Source: Bryobacterales bacterium (lineage in GTDB: Bacteria; Acidobacteriota; Terriglobia; Bryobacterales; UBA6623). From it: a stretch of 64,000 nucleotides of DNA. A program made the translations under genes and the position numbers. The first letter of the stretch is position 1. The number at the start of each line of letters is the position of its first letter. The stretch lies in assembly GCA_963422375.2 (NCBI GenBank), contig OY729427.2, forward strand, positions 1,760,001 through 1,824,000, written 5' to 3'. Below are positions 38,493 through 50,489 of the stretch, piece by piece. The notes beneath the pieces are model-generated. The model was given only the letters and a program-made list of their open reading frames with translations, did not search any database and was not told the origin of the DNA.

Positions 38493-39440
38493 TTACTCGC
38501 TGGCGCCCTGAGACGGCTTGCGGAACGACTCGCCCGAAGGCGGCGTGTCGCCCCCGGCGACGGTCGGCAGGTGCTCCAGCTTGCGGCGGGCGATTTTCGC
38601 CCAAGGGCTCGACGCGTCGAGCTTGAGGAACAGCCGCCAGTGCTTGGCCGCGCGGAGGACCTGCCCGCGGCGCTCGTAGACCACGGCTAGATTGAAATGG
38701 GCGTCGGCGTAGTCGCACTGGCAGACCAGCGCGCTCTCGTAGTGTTCCGCGGCCTCGGCGAGCCGGTTCGTCTCCTCGCAGACGTTGCCTAGGTTGAAGT
38801 GGGCGAGGGCGTACTCGGGGAAGATGGCCAGGGCCTCCTTGTAGCTGCTCTCGGCGTCGTGCAGGCGGCCCTCGCGATGGTGCAGCGTCCCGACATTGAC
38901 CCATGCCCCGGCAGCGCGCGGGTTGAGAGCCAGAATCTTCCGGTAGACGTCGATAATCTCGCTTGGCCGCTCGCCGGATCGCTCGAGGTCCAAGGCGTAC
39001 TGGAACAAGCTCGCCTCGCCGCGGCCCGGCATGCCGTTGTCCTTGGTCCCGCGATCCTGCTCGAGAGTGGTGACGGCTCGCGCGCTCCCGGACCTGAAGT
39101 CGAATAGCATCTGGCCGGTAAGCGCCTCTATCCGTTCGCCCGGCAGCTCGACCGCGATGCGACGGCCGTCGGAGACGATCTTGAGCTCGTCCAAGGGGCG
39201 GTCTATGTGGTCGAAGCGAGTCCTGAGCTGCCGGATGGCCTCGGCGATCTCCTTCGGGGGGATCTGGTGGCTCCGGAGGTTCTGCAGGGTCTTGAGAGAC
39301 ACTAGATCCGTAAAGCTGTATCCCTCCTGCGCCGCGGTCAGGCCTGCCCGCTCCCAGGAGCGCAGGCTGTTTTCCTTGATGCCCAGGATCCGACGGATCT
39401 CGGACCTTGTGTAGGTATCGGAAGTCTTTTCAGACTCCAC
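38493..39440 (-). CDS. MerR-like HTH + tetratricopeptide repeat protein
   Basis: YTRSEIRRILGIKENSLRSWERAGL...YSFTDL HTH, GQMLFDF, then TPRs (AWVNVG, AHFNLG, AHFNLA); GTG start 6 nt after TATACT. Confidence 0.85.
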   Translation of the reverse strand: MESEKTSDTYTRSEIRRILGIKENSLRSWERAGLTAAQEGYSFTDLVSLKTLQNLRSHQIPPKEIAEAIRQLRTRFDHIDRPLDELKIVSDGRRIAVELPGERIEALTGQMLFDFRSGSARAVTTLEQDRGTKDNGMPGRGEASLFQYALDLERSGERPSEIIDVYRKILALNPRAAGAWVNVGTLHHREGRLHDAESSYKEALAIFPEYALAHFNLGNVCEETNRLAEAAEHYESALVCQCDYADAHFNLAVVYERRGQVLRAAKHWRLFLKLDASSPWAKIARRKLEHLPTVAGGDTPPSGESFRKPSQGASE

Positions 39441-39514
39441 GTAGCGAGTATAGCGCGGGCTGGGGCCGAGCTTGTCCCTCGCCGAGCGCGGGGAATCGCG
39501 ACGATACTGGCCGC

Positions 39515-40129
39515 CTAGCCCCGTTTCGGGCCGCCTGCCCTCGCGGCGATGGCCCCGCCCGCTCCGGCCGTCAGGACCAGCAGCAGGGCTTCGAAGGCCA
39601 TGCTGAACGCCATCATCATCGCGAATACCGCGGGATCTTCCAGCAGGCGCTGGACTTCCGATCCGAGGCCGAGGCTCTCGACTTGGTCTCGCATCGGTCC
39701 GAGGATCGCTTCGCGGCCCTGCGTCGCGAGAACCGAGACCAGCAGCAAGAACGAGGGCACGAAGCAGGCCAGGCCGGTCAGGGCGCCGATGCCGAATCCC
39801 TGCCACCCGCCTTGCGCGACGGGGTGGCGCTTCTCGAACCGCCGCACGGCCAGGAAGCCGGCTCCGCCCGGGACCAGGTAGCCAAGCCACGCGAAGAGAG
39901 CGCCGCCGCCCAGGATGGCGAGACGCACGCAGACGGCGCCCAGCGCCGGCAGGAACGCGGCCCGGACATACGCGTCCATGCCGGGCGGCAGCTGCGCGCT
40001 CGGCTCGTCGCGAGCCTCGAAGGCCCGCTCGAAGGGCTCGCCGATCCCCGCGTGCAGGGGCCGCCCGCAGCGGGGGCAGAACGACGCCCCGTCCGGCAGG
40101 GGGCTGCCGCAAGTGCAGTGAGCGACCAT
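39515..40129 (-). CDS. Zinc-ribbon membrane protein
   Basis: CTCG..LPDGASFCPRCG followed by about 4 hydrophobic helices. Confidence 0.8.
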   Translation of the reverse strand: MVAHCTCGSPLPDGASFCPRCGRPLHAGIGEPFERAFEARDEPSAQLPPGMDAYVRAAFLPALGAVCVRLAILGGGALFAWLGYLVPGGAGFLAVRRFEKRHPVAQGGWQGFGIGALTGLACFVPSFLLLVSVLATQGREAILGPMRDQVESLGLGSEVQRLLEDPAVFAMMMAFSMAFEALLLVLTAGAGGAIAARAGGPKRG

Positions 40130-40233
40130 CCGACCGGGACTCGAGGCAGGCGGCGGGCCTCGATCCCTACAAAGATTGTATTCCCGGGCCGCTCCCTGCC
40201 GGGGACGGCGCGCCGGCGCGCCCTGTTGGCAGC

Positions 40234-43200
40234 CTACGTTTCGACCGTGCGCACGATCCTGAGGATGTGCGCGCCGTACCTGCCGGCGACCGACGGACCC
40301 ACCCCGGGCGCGGACAGCAGTTGCCGCTGGTCTCGCGGCTTGGAATCGGCGATCCAGTCGAGAGAGCGGTTGTGCAGGATGACGTACGGCGGTTTCTTGG
40401 TCCTGGTCGCCTCCTCCTTGCGCCAGGCGCGCAGGGCGGAGCGTATCAGCTCGCTCGCCGCGTCCGGGGCGGGCACGTTGTCCAGCCCGAGCCGCGAGGC
40501 GGGGGCCGGCCCGTCGGGCCGGGCGCGTCGGCGCGAGGTCGAGCTCTTCCGGCCGGCGCGCTGCTTCGCGGGGCCGGCTAGGCCGGCCCCCTCGGCCGGG
40601 AGCCGCACTTCGCTCCCCGGGCGCGAGGCGCTCCTCCCGGAATCGGTCAGGCACAGCCTGCGGAACTCGATGCGCTCCTGCTCCTTGTTGACGAACGAGT
40701 CGTTCTCCACCCGCGCCAGCCCGGCGGCCGCGATGGCGTCGACCAGTCTCTCGTAGGCCCTGCGCTCCATCCGGCGCGTTTCCGCGTGCTCGCGGAACAG
40801 CTTCCCCACGGACTGCCCGTCCCGCAGCCGCAGCGATCCGAGCACCTCGCCCACGACCTGCGCTTCGATGGCCGTGGGTTCCCGGAACGTCTTGAGCGCG
40901 CAGGACGACGGCTGGCAATTGTCGCACCGCCCGCACGGTTTGAGGGAGTCCTCGAGGTCGCCGAAGTGGCGCACGAGGTCGAGCATGCGGCAGTCCTGGG
41001 AGCGGGTGAATTCCCAGACCTGGTTCGTCTGGGCGATCTTGTGATCGCGCTGGCGGACGTAGCTGTCCAGCCAGCGGTCTTCCCCGCGGGTGGCGTTCTC
41101 GTCCGCGTCGATGCGGATGCCGCCGTGGATCCACATCTTCTCGACCGCTTTCTCCAGTTTCTGGAAATCGCCGCCGAACAGCCCGAGGAGGTCCGCCACG
41201 GGGCGCGCTTCGGCCGAGAGCTGGCCGAAGAGCGTCTCCAGCGCGCTGGGCTCGGGATAGTCGCGCTCCAGGAAGAACTCGTGCGTCTTGCGGTCGATCC
41301 AGGAGTAGAGCAGGACCGCCTTCGACGGCTTGCCGTCGCGCCCGGCGCGCCCGATCTCCTGGTAGTACCCCTCGATCGACCCCGGCAGGCCCGTGTGAAC
41401 GACCGTGCGCACGTCGGCCTTGTCGATGCCCATGCCGAAGGCGATCGTGGCGACGATGATGTCGATCTCGCCCTGCAGGAACGATGCCTGGACGCGGTCG
41501 CGATCCTCGGCGGGCATTCCGGCGTGGTAGGCGGCGACCTTGTGGCTCGCCGCGAGTGCTTGCGCCTGCTCCTCGGACGCCTTGCGAGTCGGGGCGTAGA
41601 CGATCGCCGGTCGCCGGCCCTCGTCCTCGAGCAACCGCACGAGGGCGGGCGGCCGCAGCTTCGGCACGAGCTCCACCAGTTCGATCTGGAGGTTCTCCCG
41701 CCGGAAGCCGTGGATCAGGCGCCGGCAGTCCGCGAGGCCTAGCTGCTCCGCGATGTCGTCTTGGACGCCCGGCGTGGCCGTCGCCGTCAGGGCGATGACC
41801 GGCGCGGGACGCAGCGCCGGCACGCGGTCGCGCAGCCGCCGGTATTCCGGCCGGAAGTCGTGCCCCCACATCGAGATGCAGTGGGCTTCGTCGATCGCCA
41901 CTAGTCCGGGAGCCCGGCGCGCCAGCAGCTCCGGAAAGCCCGGCACCGCCAGGCGCTCCGGGGCGATGTGCAGGAAGTCGAGCTCCCCGGCTAGGTAGTC
42001 CTGGCAGACGCGCCGGGACTCGAGCCGGTCGCGGCCGGAGTGGATGCGCTCGGCGCGGAAGCCCTGCTGCCGCAGCTTCTCGGTCTGGTCCTCCATCAGG
42101 GCGATCAGCGGGCTGATCACCAGTGTCGTCCCGCCTCGCGCGACGCCGGGGAGCTGGTAGCAGAGGGACTTCCCGGCTCCGGTCGGCATGACGAGCAGCA
42201 CGTCCTCGCCCGCGAGGACCTGCCGGCAGGCATCCTCTTGGTGCGGCCGGAACGCGTCGTGGCCGAAGCGCTCCCTCAGCAGGGTTCGCATCCGCCCGGG
42301 GGAGGTCGGCGCAGCGCTCGGCCCCGACGCGGACAGGCGCGCGGCGTGCGGCCCGTCCGAACCGCCCGACGGCTCGCGGTCGCGGGCCTGTCCGCGGCCC
42401 CCCTGCCCCTCGGAGGCGGCTGGCGCTGTCCGGCCGTTCGGCCCGGGCTGCTGCGGCCTTCCGAGAGGGCCGGCCGCGCGGTCGGTGCGCTGGGAAGCCG
42501 CCGCGGGAGCCGCGTGTTCGGCACTGGGCCCTCGCGCCGCGGCGGGCGGCTCGTCGCCGCCGAACGGCGCGTCCGGCGCCCCTGGGTCCGGCCGCGCCCG
42601 AGCCGGCGCGGAGCCGTTCGCGCCGACGACCTCGCGCACGAACTCCTCGATGCCTCGCATGAACGCGTCGAAGCCCCCGTCGCCCCGCTCGATCTCGCGG
42701 AGCTGCGACTCCCACTCTCCCGTCATCGCAGGGCTGCGGACCTTCGGGTGGACGATCTCCAGCAGGCGGATGCCCTTGTCCGTGGCGCTCAGCTGCTTCT
42801 TGTCGCGACGGGCGTACTCGCGCTTGAGCAGCGTCTCGATGATCGACGCGCGGGTGGCCGGGGTCCCGATCCCGCGCTCCTTCATCGCCTCCGAGAGCTG
42901 CTTGCTGTCGAGCGTCTTGCCCGCCGATTCCATGGCGGTCAGCAGGGTCGCCTCGGTGAACCGCGCGGGCGGCCGCGTCCGCTTCTTCAGCGCCTCGGCC
43001 TTGGCCACCTTGACGCGCTGCCCCTCTCCCAGCCCGCCCGGCAGCTGGGGCTCTTCGCGGCGCTTGCCCGCCGTCTTGATGTCGAGCACCTTCCAGCCTT
43101 CCTCGTCCACGGCCGTGCCGGCGGACAGGTACTGGTCGGCGTCCGCCTTGCACGCGATCCGGGTGATCACCGTGGTCGCGGAGTACTTGTGGTCGCCGTG

Positions 43201-44430
43201 CCACGCCTGCAGGAGGCGGCGGCTGATCAGGTCGAGAATCTTCTCCTCCGCCGAGCCGCCCGCGACGCCCTGCGCCGCGCCGGTCGGCACGATCGCGTGG
43301 TGGTCGGTGACCTTGGCGTCGTCCACGAAGCGCTTGCCGAGCGGCCGGTCGCCGGTCCCCTCGGCGATCGCCGCCGCGTCGTATCCGCTCGCGACCCGCT
43401 TCGCGACGGCGCCGACGCCGCTCGCGACCTCGCTCGACAGATGCCGGCTGTCGGTGCGGGGGTAGGTGATCGACTTGTGCCGCTCGTAGAGCTGCTGGGC
43501 GAGCGCGAGCGTGCGGTCGGCGCTGTATCCGTACAGCCGGTTGGCGTGCCGCTGCAGCTCGGTCAGGTCGTAGAGCAGAGGGGGGGGCAGGCGCTTGTTG
43601 GCCTTGCGGATCGACTGGATGTCGGCCTTGCCGACGGCGGCGCGTTCCACTACGGCAGCGGCCTGGTCGCCGTCGGCGGGCAGGCGGGTCTGGCGCTTGC
43701 CCTTCACCAGCCTGAAGTAGGTGCCGCGGTAGACCCGCCCCTCGCCCGCGTCGAACTCCGCCTGCACCTCCAGGTAGTCCTCGGGCACGAAGTTGCGAAT
43801 CGCCAGCTCGCGCTCCACCAGCATGGCCAGCGTGGGCGTCTGGACGCGGCCCACGGAAAGGACCTCGTCGCGGTCGATCGAGTAGACCCGCGTCAGATTC
43901 ATGCCGACCAGCCAGTCGGCCCGGCTGCGCGCCTTCGCGGCAGACGCGAGATCGTCGAACTCGCTGGAAGGGCGCAGCTGCTCGAAGCCCCGGCGGATGG
44001 CGTCGCGCGTCAGGGACGAGATCCACAGCCGGTCCACGGGCTTGTCGCAGCCCGCGGCTTCGTAGATCAGGCGGAAGATCAGCTCGCCCTCCCGCCCGGC
44101 GTCGGTGGCGCAGACCACCCGCCCGATGCGCTGGTTCGTCAGGATTTTCCGGACGACCTCGAACTGGTCGCTCCGGCCCTCGTCGACCCGCAGCGGCCAG
44201 CGGGACGGCAGCATCGGCAGCGTGGACCGCCGCCACGCCTTCCACTGGGGATCGATCTGGTGCGGTTCGGCGAGCGCCACCAAGTGGCCGATGGCCCAGG
44301 TGACGACGAAGCCGTTGCCGGCATAGTACCCGTCTCGGCGAGTGGACGCTCCCAGTGCCGCCGAGATATCCCGGCCTACGGACGGCTTCTCGGCGACGAT
44401 GGCGGTATGCGTGGCTGGCCCGCGATGCAC
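40234..44430 (-). CDS. topB-recQ: DNA topoisomerase III - RecQ helicase - HRDC fusion protein
   Basis: Toprim AEKPS and ATDAGREGE, catalytic ITYPRTD, GTPATR; Pro/Ala/Gly-rich linker; RecQ motifs [41 protein letters not shown]; Zn CR...CGRCDNC; C-terminal HRDC. Confidence 0.93.
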
Positions 44431-44578
44431 AGGTTACACGCTCAGTGTAGCGCCGCGACGCGGCGGCGGGGCTACACTTGGAGGCTCGCTGCCTCATGAC
44501 CCGCCATGGCAGAGTCGCGCTCGCGGGCCGTCCCCGCCCGGCGGTCGCGCGGCGACCGCTCCGCCGGGGATCGGGCGC

Positions 44579-45505
44579 GTGAACCGGCTGGCCGAGCGGA
44601 TCCGCGCCGGCGATCCGCGCGCCCTCGCCCGCGGCCTCAGCTGGGTGGAGAATCGCGCGCCGGGCTCCGTCGGCCTCCTGCGCGCCCTGCACAGCCCCGA
44701 GCGCCGGGCCTTGCGGCTCGGCATCACCGGGGCGCCGGGCGCCGGCAAGAGCACCTTGGTGGACTGCGTGGTCCGGCTCCTGCGCCGGGAGGGGCGGTCC
44801 GTCGCGATCCTGGCCGTGGACCCGAGCAGCCCGTTCAGCGGCGGGGCGGTCCTCGGCGACCGGGTCAGGATGCAGCGTCACCACGGCGACCCGGGCGTGT
44901 TCATCCGCTCGATGGCCTCGCGCGGCCAGCTCGGCGGCCTCGCCCCTGCGGTGGGTGACGCCCTCGCCCTGCTGGAGGCGTTCGGCGCCTTTGCTGTCGT
45001 CATCGAGACCGCCGGTGTCGGGCAGAGCGAGGTGGACGTGGTACAGCTGGCCGCGACCGTGGCCGTGGTGCTGGTGCCGTCTCTCGGCGACGACATCCAG
45101 GCCGCGAAGGCAGGCATCATGGAAATAGCCGACCTGTTCGTCATCAACAAGGCCGACCTGCCCGGCGCGGACGAGCTGGAGCGCCAGCTCCTGGCCATGA
45201 CCTCGCTGGTTCCGCGCGGCCGCCCCGGTCCGCCGGTCGTGCGAACGGTGGCCAGCCGGTGCGAGGGCGTCGAAGAGCTGCTTCGCCTGCTCCGGCGGGG
45301 CGGGCGCGACCGGGACGGCGCGGGCTACTGGAAGAGGCTCCTGCTCAACAGGATCGGCGCGGAAGTGCGGGGCATGCTGGAGTCAGGCGGGGCGCTCTCC
45401 GCCGACTTGGAGCGTGCCGCGGAGGCCGTCGCCGCGGGTCGTCTCAATCCGTACTCCTTCGAGAGCGAGATGCTGGCGCGTCTGCGACCGCAGTGGAAGA
45501 CATGA
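44579..45505 (+). CDS. meaB: Methylmalonyl-CoA mutase-associated GTPase
   Basis: GITGAPGAGKST, AVDPSSPFSGGAVLGDRVRM, IETAGVGQSE, KAGIMEIAD, NKAD. Confidence 0.93.
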   Translation: MNRLAERIRAGDPRALARGLSWVENRAPGSVGLLRALHSPERRALRLGITGAPGAGKSTLVDCVVRLLRREGRSVAILAVDPSSPFSGGAVLGDRVRMQRHHGDPGVFIRSMASRGQLGGLAPAVGDALALLEAFGAFAVVIETAGVGQSEVDVVQLAATVAVVLVPSLGDDIQAAKAGIMEIADLFVINKADLPGADELERQLLAMTSLVPRGRPGPPVVRTVASRCEGVEELLRLLRRGGRDRDGAGYWKRLLLNRIGAEVRGMLESGGALSADLERAAEAVAAGRLNPYSFESEMLARLRPQWKT

Positions 45506-49659: not shown

Positions 49660-50489
49660 CGAGTGCTTGCGCCCGCCACGGCGCTGGAGGCGCGGCGGCG
49701 GGTACGTCCCGCGCATCAAGGGCCTGCCGCAGATCAAGATTAGGCCGCAGCGCGGGTTGCCGAGCCTCGAGCCTCGGTTCGTCCGCATCACCCGCACGGA
49801 CGCAGGGATCAACGTGGACATGGTGCTCGACGGCGTCTGCAAGCAGCTGCTGCCGCCGTCCGAGTCCGCCGCGGGCAGCGACCCGGGCGTCGCGGATCAA
49901 CTCGCTACCAGCGATGGCGAGCGTATCCGAGGCGTTGACGACACGCAGCATCGCAAGGCGACCCGCGAGCGCAGCCGTGCTGTCTCCCGCTCGAAGAAGG
50001 GCGGCAAGGCGCGCCGCAAGCAGCACGTTTCCAAGCGCAACGCCTGCCATCGCAAGCCCGCGCGGCCGGTCCGCAAGCACGGCACCCTCGTGGGCGAGGA
50101 TCTGGCCGTCGAGACCATGACGCGTTCCGCGAAGGGCACCGCCGAGGCGCCCGGAACGAACGTCAAGCAGAAGGCTGGACCGCAGCGCTCGATCCCGAGC
50201 CAGGCACGGGGATTGCTGCCAGGGCAGCTTGCGTGCAAGGCGGGATGGGCCGGTCGCAGGTCCGAGCAGGTCCATCCCGCCCATACGTCGCAGCGGTGCC
50301 ATCGATGCGCCGAAGCGGACGGCTCGAATCGCAAGGGCACGCGCTGCGGCTGCTCGGGCGATGCGGACGTCAATGCGGTGATCAACGTCTTGCCGACTCC
50401 GAACTCGCCTGCGGCAGCTGCCAACCGCGGCAACGGTCGCGGTGCTGCCAGGAATCGTCCCAGTCAGCAATGACTCGTGACGCGTTCAG
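49660..50489 (+). mobile_element. tnpB: tnpB (RNA-guided nuclease) remnant, copy 1, 5'-truncated and decayed
   Basis: RuvC-like GSDPG, EDLAV, MTRSAKGTAEAPGTNVKQKAG, TSQRCHRC, DADVNAVINVL. Confidence 0.85.

Follow-up and report, generated by a model that had tools for sequence, protein, structure and literature searches.

One gene in the 64,000-nucleotide stretch of DNA analysed here (the window; contig OY729427.2, positions 1,760,001 to 1,824,000, of the Bryobacterales bacterium assembly GCA_963422375.2) encodes a topoisomerase III (Topo III, or TopB) and a RecQ helicase as one polypeptide. A preliminary description had read it as a single uninterrupted TopB-linker-RecQ-HRDC open reading frame (ORF) of 1398 residues, and Pfam domains and NCBIfam family scores bear this out. 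The gene is a genuine, conserved single-polypeptide TopB-linker-RecQ and not a read-through artefact, and its genome has no other TopB and no other canonical RecQ (one with Zn and HRDC modules). Its product is probably a complete Topo III, a disordered tether of ~110 residues and a complete RecQ that together perform tethered, helicase-driven strand passage, where we infer both the activities and their coupling. The fusion is conserved and uncharacterised and joins two well-known partner enzymes in an architecture that is widespread and already in public databases; it is neither unique to this genome nor mechanistically mysterious.

40234..44430 (-), whole TopB-linker-RecQ gene, 1398 codons plus a stop codon (40234-40236), with a GTG start at 44430-44428

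The N-terminal half is a complete topoisomerase III

The topoisomerase half scored above the NCBIfam cut-offs for NF005829 (PRK07726, topB subfamily; 642.7 versus 597) and TIGR01056 (547.2 versus 515.75), and contained the following features.

44014..44403 (-), Toprim domain (Pfam), residues 10-139, with E14 and the DAGREGE motif (D110, E114 and E116)
42658..43959 (-), Topoisom_bac type IA core, residues 158-591 (Pfam, E value 8e-110)
43462..43464 (-), catalytic tyrosine Y323 in ITYPRTD, invariant in the alignment

Motif conservation in both halves was read from an alignment of 25 fused homologues. Y323 aligns with the tyrosine of ITYPRSD in E. coli Topo III (1d6m). The catalytic motifs that had been named as intact (ITYPRTD, GKS, DEAH, WGHDFRPEY and the Zn cysteines) were indeed so in these homologues. 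The same claim for the Toprim acidic residues held in part: E14, D110, E114 and E116 are conserved, but Gly takes the place of the second Asp of the E. coli DxD in 120 of 120 fused proteins. Stand-alone TopBs of the phylum share this Gly (11 of 11), which therefore marks the subfamily and is no sign of decay. The Toprim motif reads DAGREGE in 119 of the 120 fused proteins and DSGREGE in the remaining one.

The best solved relative of the topoisomerase half was E. coli Topo III 1d6m (E value 1.4e-87, residues 11-643), and no chain in the PDB spanned both halves of the fusion. The halves were modelled as two overlapping pieces with AlphaFold, residues 1-715 and 701-1398 being folded separately. 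The model of the topoisomerase half had a mean predicted local distance difference test (pLDDT) score of 81.9, rising to about 90 over the toroid (residues 4-608). Foldseek searches with the folded part returned the E. coli Topo III structures 2o59, 2o5c and 1d6m (E values 1e-49 to 1e-51, template modelling [TM] scores 0.81-0.84), whereas the E value was 1e-36 against Topo I and 1e-26 against reverse gyrase, indicating that the predicted fold is that of the Topo III toroid, nearer to Topo III than to Topo I. The alignment to 1d6m was ungapped opposite E. coli residues 502-519, which we take to be the decatenation loop of Topo III; residues 499-523 align there, with a sequence that is only partly similar.

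The C-terminal half is a complete RecQ helicase

The helicase half carries the modules of a RecQ protein in the order listed below.

41764..42249 (-), RecQ lobe 1 (DEAD), residues 728-889, with Walker A K754, DEAH at 847-850 and the aromatic loop at 855-863
41332..41646 (-), RecQ lobe 2 (Helicase_C), residues 929-1033, by Pfam and alignment
41080..41250 (-), winged-helix-like insert, residues about 1061-1117, inside the Zn-binding domain (AlphaFold)
40912..41064 (-), RecQ_Zn_bind module, residues 1123-1173, with C1147, C1166, C1169 and C1172
40648..40872 (-), RQC winged helix, residues about 1187-1261 (AlphaFold model)
40465..40554 (-), second disordered stretch, basic, residues 1293-1322, pLDDT below 50, between the winged helix and HRDC
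40252..40440 (-), HRDC, residues 1331-1393 (Pfam, E value 1.7e-15), a helical bundle in the model

The score for the recQ_fam model TIGR00614 was 378.9 against a cut-off of 219.8, and that for the E. coli-type recQ equivalog TIGR01389 stayed below its cut-off (469.7 versus 640.2, in three stretches). In the fused homologues, the GKS motif with K754, DEAH 847-850, WGHDFRPEY 855-863 and motif VI, residues 1024-1033, were invariant or nearly so, and the four Zn cysteines were invariant. The best solved relative was the E. coli RecQ core 1oyw (E value 9e-87, residues 715-1047). The model of residues 701-1398 (mean pLDDT 87.9) showed two RecA-like lobes, a Zn domain, an RQC winged helix and an HRDC bundle, so that the winged helix and HRDC proposed at the outset are both folded in the model, and HRDC is also found by Pfam. 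Foldseek matched this half to the catalytic cores 4tmu and 1oyw (E values 1e-33 to 1e-34, TM score 0.73).

The insert at about 1061-1117 was predicted as three helices and a beta-hairpin with a pLDDT of about 90. E. coli RecQ did not show it, and the alignment to that protein is interrupted at this point. Unfused RecQs of the group that we call 'long-type' can be aligned across the region, which is thus common to fused and unfused members.

The halves are joined in one frame by a disordered linker

42286..42606 (-), disordered linker rich in Ala, Pro, Gly, Arg and Ser, residues 609-715 (AlphaFold)

By alignment the linker measures 112 residues (604-715), in line with the ~110 first estimated, and residues 609-613 and 618-715 were predicted to be disordered (pLDDT 30-37, without secondary structure). 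Across 120 fused proteins it ranged sevenfold in length, from 29 to 203 residues (median 100.5), and had no conserved column; its composition was Pro 19%, Ala 15%, Gly 12%, Ser 10% and Arg 10%. Length and sequence have drifted freely and yet the frame has been kept, which argues for selection to link the halves and not to form a fold. A candidate linker motif, R..[ED]..FG, was seen in one subgroup and was rejected, as it occurred in only 12 of the 120 fused proteins.

Support for the single frame comes from sequence data and from relatives. Contigs from public runs of two studies matched the gene with no differences and no indels: X1 and X3 each covered 41416-44600 with one contig, and X5 covered 41416-42866 with two overlapping contigs, although the best-matching public sample may be the source sample of the assembly itself. 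These matches take in the linker, singled out in the preliminary description as a point to check. As to the distribution of the architecture, also raised there, a protein search found PF01131 together with PF00270 in all of the 119 other clusters listed (1293-1501 residues, 52-70% identity), and the ESM Atlas held at least six clusters with the same domain set (70, 322, 96 members and more). When a query spanning the junction was used, both flanks were present in order in 77 of the best 150 representatives at 50% identity; 31 of these 77 were at least 1200 residues long and the others were fragments.

Among 18 other species of the genus, the fusion lay in one open frame in 16: 15 gave uninterrupted full-length matches, and in G012 both pieces lay in one 1371-residue frame. 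In G006, an assembly of 800 contigs, the pieces of the fusion were at contig ends. Named loci with both halves had one open frame in 9 of 13 cases. Three of the others (L030, L048 and L051) showed many breaks, some of them inside domains; judging by their record names, these are probably long-read metagenome-assembled genomes (MAGs). A read-through of the region between two genes, which had been put forward as the finding that would undo the fusion, therefore fails for most relatives.

Distribution of the fusion among genomes

Two type IA topoisomerases are present in the genome, a TopA-like gene and the fusion, and only the fusion reached the TopB cut-off (549.5 in the whole-genome search). 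The recQ_fam cut-off was reached at two loci, by the fusion (368 bits) and by a 711-residue DEAD/Helicase_C protein (225.5 bits). Two other HRDC matches in the genome were at places without a recQ_fam match. In three other fusion-bearing genomes that were checked, the type IA enzymes were likewise TopA and the fusion only.

The fusion was present in 18 of 18 genus genomes and in 0 of 12 genomes of two sister families, which gave only a conventional RecQ of ~44% identity and TopA-level topoisomerase matches. In the phylum sample it was found in 5 of 300 other genomes (G040, G059 and G075 [family f16, 3/3], G125 and G299), a floor, since this search used a stricter filter. TopB exceeded the cut-off in 24 of 301 genomes of the sample, of which 5 were fused (the window counted) and 19 stand-alone; the idea that TopB exists only as a fusion in this phylum was accordingly rejected. 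The phylum tallies include three unpublished genomes (G054, G079 and G182), none of which has the fusion. Tunturibacter has an unfused long-type RecQ, and its only type IA enzyme is TopA.

Named carriers included MAGs of Bryobacterales, Solibacteraceae, Terriglobia and Thermoanaerobaculia. Further carriers were a Polyangiaceae MAG, an Oligoflexus MAG and two 'proteobacterium' MAGs, with labels including Myxococcota and Bdellovibrionota, and partial TopB matches were labelled Myxococcaceae, Myxococcales, Labilithrix and Vicinamibacteria. Public databases label the fusion 'DNA topoisomerase 3', and the automatic names in the ESM Atlas are 'DNA topoisomerase 3 family' or 'RecQ family'.

One genus genome has the fusion twice; the second copy (G017:C5:1705695-1709021) gave separate matches in one 1526-residue frame, in which about the first 190 residues of the topoisomerase half were unmatched. 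Many species of the genus also have RecQ-like motors of ~43% identity in open frames of 1450-1990 residues (for example, G005:C8:2056225, G001:C3:3959323 and three places in G003); none was seen in the genome of the window (G000).

Evolutionary origin of the fusion

In phylogenetic trees, the RecQ half fell within the long-type clade, which includes unfused members and is separated from conventional RecQs with a support of 100. The Acidobacteriaceae long-type clade was wholly unfused (support 96 with FastTree and 93 with IQ-TREE), and a genome of the same class, G199, adjoined Tunturibacter (Acidobacteriaceae) in the RecQ tree, which probably places the window in Acidobacteriota and in the class to which Acidobacteriaceae belong. 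The sister clade of the unfused Acidobacteriaceae clade (support 92-93) held all fused sequences together with seven unfused ones. For the other half, 39 fused topoisomerase sequences formed one side of a branch (support 99) that separates them from 11 stand-alone TopBs of the phylum, to which they are 39-44% identical. Subclades of the topoisomerase tree mirrored those of the RecQ tree, indicating that both halves have evolved together. The trees were unrooted within the clade, and two were made with FastTree or quick searches; they left out the broken loci (L027, L030, L048 and L051), RecQ rows with fewer than 300 aligned residues and two thirds of the conventional RecQ outgroup loci.

At the loci examined, the stretch of about 4 kb upstream of each unfused long-type RecQ contained no topB, and an ancestral topB-recQ operon is thus unsupported. 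As the simplest reading, the trees suggest one ancient fusion of TopB with a long-type RecQ that was co-inherited, with some horizontal spread and repeated loss of the topoisomerase half. A 1204-residue frame at the unfused locus L109 (G184) was considered as a third architecture and rejected: its first 685 codons are rich in Arg and Pro and resemble non-coding DNA (G+C at third codon positions 0.61), without a Pfam match.

Comparison with separate RecQ and topoisomerase III partners

E. coli RecQ and TopB (with SSB) are the best solved relatives of the two halves, and the folds match; the catalytic tyrosine, DEAH box, aromatic loop, Zn cysteines and HRDC are alike. The E. coli enzymes are described as cooperating on Holliday junctions and converging forks (PMC2647321), and by this likeness the expected chemistry of the fusion would be helicase-fed single-strand passage on converging forks or junctions. 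The E. coli enzymes are two proteins from unlinked genes, whereas here one chain carries TopB and then RecQ; where E. coli Topo III ends in a basic C-terminal tail, the fusion has the linker and RecQ instead. The fusion RecQ further differs in the winged-helix-like insert in its Zn domain and in a longer spacer between the winged helix and HRDC, and the Toprim motif of the topoisomerase half is DAGREGE in place of the E. coli DPDREGQ. The pairing of RecQ with type IA enzymes is described as universal (PMC7245102), and Topo III as the better decatenase (PMC4191389).

In the eukaryotic dissolvasome, the helicase is described as migrating junctions that the topoisomerase unlinks (PMC4109787). The Sgs1-Top3-Rmi1 and BLM-TOP3A-RMI1/2 complexes resemble the fusion in pairing a RecQ-family helicase with a Topo III-type enzyme. 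In both Sgs1 and the fusion the topoisomerase is positioned N-terminal of the helicase through a disordered segment; the Sgs1 N-terminus is reported to be disordered and to bind Top3 and Rmi1 (PMC3905885). HRDC is present in the fusion, and that of BLM is reported to matter for dissolution (PMC2995041). The eukaryotic attachment is non-covalent, whereas that of the fusion is covalent, in a single frame and conserved. Both halves of the fusion are bacterial subtypes, and TOP3A (4cgy) was matched by sequence with an E value of only 2e-15. RMI1 (PF08585) had no match in the genome, and the control genomes were likewise silent.

Proposed mechanism and alternative explanations

Type IA topoisomerases need single-stranded DNA, and RecQ makes it. 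Together with the cooperation of the separate enzymes in E. coli and in eukaryotes, this is why we read the fusion as a tethered strand-passage enzyme. By analogy with the separate E. coli enzymes, RecQ would load on forked, gapped or junction DNA and unwind it in the 3'-5' direction with ATP. The single-stranded DNA thereby exposed would be the obligatory substrate of the tethered Topo III, which would cut one strand through Y323 and pass another through the gate. Late replication intermediates and converging forks would be unlinked in this way, and double Holliday junctions would be dissolved without crossovers. The tether would set a 1:1 stoichiometry and hold the topoisomerase within reach of the helicase, with no rigid interface. 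Elsewhere, recruitment between Topo III and its helicase is mediated by SSB or by RMI1 and N-terminal domains, and the tether may, by analogy, stand in for these. A more ambitious version holds that the fusion is a self-sufficient dissolvasome and decatenase whose N-terminal tether replaces both SSB bridging and RMI1/Sgs1-N-terminus recruitment, giving what the separate proteins do not have, processive, ATP-directed strand passage that follows the moving helicase, and serving as the main unlinking and crossover-suppressing system of its carriers. We hold this version to be possible but doubtful; if it were true, many crossings would be unlinked per binding event, or the change in linking number would have a directional bias.

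Several observations weigh against a conserved fusion with a coupled function. Coincidence can be set aside for the domains, though not for the linker by itself. At 83% G+C, the linker has no stop in any of the three forward frames (G+C at first, second and third codon positions 0.84, 0.80 and 0.87), so the case for a true fusion rests on the relatives and not on this open ORF. The linker is interrupted by a TGA in the genus genome G014 and changes frame once in L027; these breaks could be natural split forms or assembly errors. It has no conserved docking motif, the R..[ED]..FG pattern being confined to its 12 proteins. The stand-alone state in 19 of 24 TopB-bearing genomes means that TopB of this phylum works without the fusion. 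On a 39-row tree, parsimony needed seven switches between fusion and non-fusion, and a constraint that held the fused RecQs (22 rows) together as a monophyletic group was rejected by 410.8 log-likelihood units (approximately unbiased test, p-AU 3e-48), where the 39 rows are a hand-picked subset and the 22-row group was named after the tree had been seen. The congeners L101 (G125, fused) and L109 (G184, unfused) have near-identical RecQs (support 100), and G184, a 99%-complete genome, gave no TopB-level match. The fusion is dispensable in evolution. The preliminary description had proposed a covalently coupled machine; the physical link is covalent and conserved, but the coupling looks in the models like a flexible tether rather than a docked machine, and it can be lost.

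The same observations bear on a reading in which the gene is fused and the enzymes are uncoupled, the fusion serving mere co-expression or the chain being split by an internal start or by proteolysis of the linker. A disordered linker of very variable length without conserved sequence, unfused RecQs nested among fused ones with a fused/unfused pair in one genus, the frame breaks in the linker of two relatives and a methionine (M714) just before RecQ motif 0 would all fit it. We nevertheless consider it unlikely, as M714 is not conserved in homologues, the 119 other clusters of the listing keep the frame over linkers of 29-203 residues, 16 of the 18 genus genomes likewise keep it, and the trees of both halves show the same subclades. 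Moreover, the stand-alone topB genes that were checked (G229, G169, G202 and G066) are far from recQ, and co-expression alone is therefore not the ancestral arrangement. That the ORF arose from two genes through faulty sequencing or assembly, or through intergenic read-through, is hardly credible and the least probable of the explanations. In a G+C-rich linker open in three frames, a single indel would pass unseen in this genome alone; however, the contigs of two studies agree with the gene throughout 41416-44600 (X1 and X3) and 41416-42866 (X5), and the frame relation is alike in the listed clusters and the genus genomes.

A reverse-gyrase-like enzyme, in which helicase unwinding is coupled to directional strand passage that alters supercoiling (for example, positively), would combine the same module classes, a superfamily 2 (SF2) helicase and a type IA topoisomerase, and the nearest different architecture in the ESM Atlas was reverse gyrase (0.86, below the 0.9 line). 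In the literature that we found, moreover, reverse gyrase alone is described as a fusion of a helicase with a type IA topoisomerase (among others in PMC2647321). However, its helicase is N-terminal and is a RecQ-unlike SF2 module without a Zn module, RQC or HRDC, whereas in our fusion TopB is N-terminal, the helicase is a RecQ complete with its Zn module, winged helix and HRDC, and the topoisomerase half is far nearer to E. coli Topo III. The rgy model TIGR01054 scored 113.7, far short of its cut-off of 471.7. In place of the packed helicase-topoisomerase interface of reverse gyrase, the fusion has the ~110-residue disordered linker. The names of the nearest relatives suggest that the host is a soil-type acidobacterium with no sign of thermophily, unlike the setting of reverse gyrase, and we regard this explanation as very unlikely. 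About as improbable, or slightly more so, is a horizontally acquired accessory or conflict gene, for example one for processing foreign or plasmid DNA. Its patchy spread (18 of 18 genus genomes, 0 of 12 in the sister families and 5 of 300 elsewhere in the phylum sample) and the copies in MAGs labelled Myxococcota, Bdellovibrionota and 'proteobacterium' are in keeping with such an origin, but the gene is the sole canonical RecQ and sole TopB of its genome, it lies in a housekeeping neighbourhood with synteny kept in 5 of 5 genus loci, and it has no adjacent defence or mobility genes, the nearest being a TnpB-like fragment 5 kb away. A tethered Topo III-RecQ with helicase-driven strand passage thus remains the reading that we prefer.

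Novelty and significance

The preliminary description knew of no biochemical characterisation of such a protein, and we found none in the full-text literature. Searches of the open full-text literature returned no paper on a natural Topo III-RecQ fusion; a mention in a subscription journal is possible. The topoisomerase fusions named in a phylogenomic review are reverse gyrase and Topo V only (PMC2647321), the words fused, fusion and chimer are absent from a 2021 review of type IA enzymes (PMC8191776), and a 2020 paper states that hyperthermophiles 'uniquely' fused these units (PMC7245102).

RecQ and Topo III work as a team in all domains of life, and the handover from unwinding to strand passage has been studied with mixtures or multi-subunit complexes. 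A natural single-chain version offers a defined 1:1 enzyme for single-molecule and structural work. The linker lengths found in nature, 29-203 residues, can serve as a test of how much proximity matters, and relatives that are naturally 'split' or 'Topo-less' provide the controls. With it, reverse gyrase can be compared with a second and independent helicase-type IA fusion. By the Rosetta-stone argument, it also suggests that the partnership of bacterial RecQ and Topo III is genuine beyond E. coli. Annotation is affected as well, since the only canonical RecQ of the carrier genomes goes unseen under the name 'DNA topoisomerase 3'.

Genomic setting of the gene

The assembly comprises 6.0 Mb in 3 contigs and is 96% complete, and the DNA around the fusion gene is 71-73% G+C. 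The GTG start aligns with the starts of five same-genus genes and is GTG in all six. A promoter-like element lies directly upstream.

44444..44449 (-), TACACT, a -10-like box 13 nt upstream of the GTG, without a Shine-Dalgarno sequence between

All six genus sequences share the core of the box, ACTGA (44443-44447), and one of them has G instead of T at 44449. On this conservation, TACACT is a candidate promoter for a near-leaderless mRNA. A scan of 39400-44800 for consensus sigma-70 promoters returned none, and a terminator scan of the same region returned 2 terminator-like sites versus 1.7 expected.

The gene is flanked on one side by ordinary genes for SDR, DUF309, PIG-L, HAD hydrolase, MerR-TPR and Zn-ribbon membrane proteins, the last of these being the nearest, and on the other by a divergent MeaB gene, a GAF-SpoIIE gene, an amine-oxidase/protoporphyrinogen-oxidase-like gene and HemE. 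In 5 of 5 genus loci the fusion has MeaB, the Zn-ribbon membrane protein and MerR-TPR beside it, but in 0 of 14 fused loci of other lineages. The fusion is a real chromosomal gene, vertically kept in the genus; its housekeeping character shows in its being the sole TopB and canonical RecQ, in its conserved neighbours and in the absence of adjacent defence or mobile genes.

An overlapping 1789-residue ORF (39515..44884, -) was rejected as a shadow frame of DNA with 72% G+C, being rich in Arg, Pro, Ala and Gly; the real gene within it comprises only the last 204 codons (39515-40129), which encode the Zn-ribbon and membrane protein. The divergent MeaB-like GTPase ORF (44342-45505, +), as listed, overlaps the 5' end of the fusion by 89 nt. 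Its Pfam match begins at residue 95, and in-frame ATGs occur at about 44495 and 44506, so the true start of MeaB is probably later. The TnpB-like fragment is a 268-residue ORF (49667-50473, +) with a Cas12f1-like/TnpB TNB domain (E value 4e-12) and is probably a remnant of a TnpB-type transposon.

Elsewhere in the genome, the 711-residue DEAD/Helicase_C protein (G000:C1:27399-29534; L004:1399-3534, +) is without Zn or HRDC modules and has a weak C-terminal phosphoribosyltransferase-like match (E value 7e-4). The strongest HRDC match of the genome (71.9 bits; G000:C2:2847633-2847824, -; L011) lies in a 131-residue frame with one in-frame TAG.

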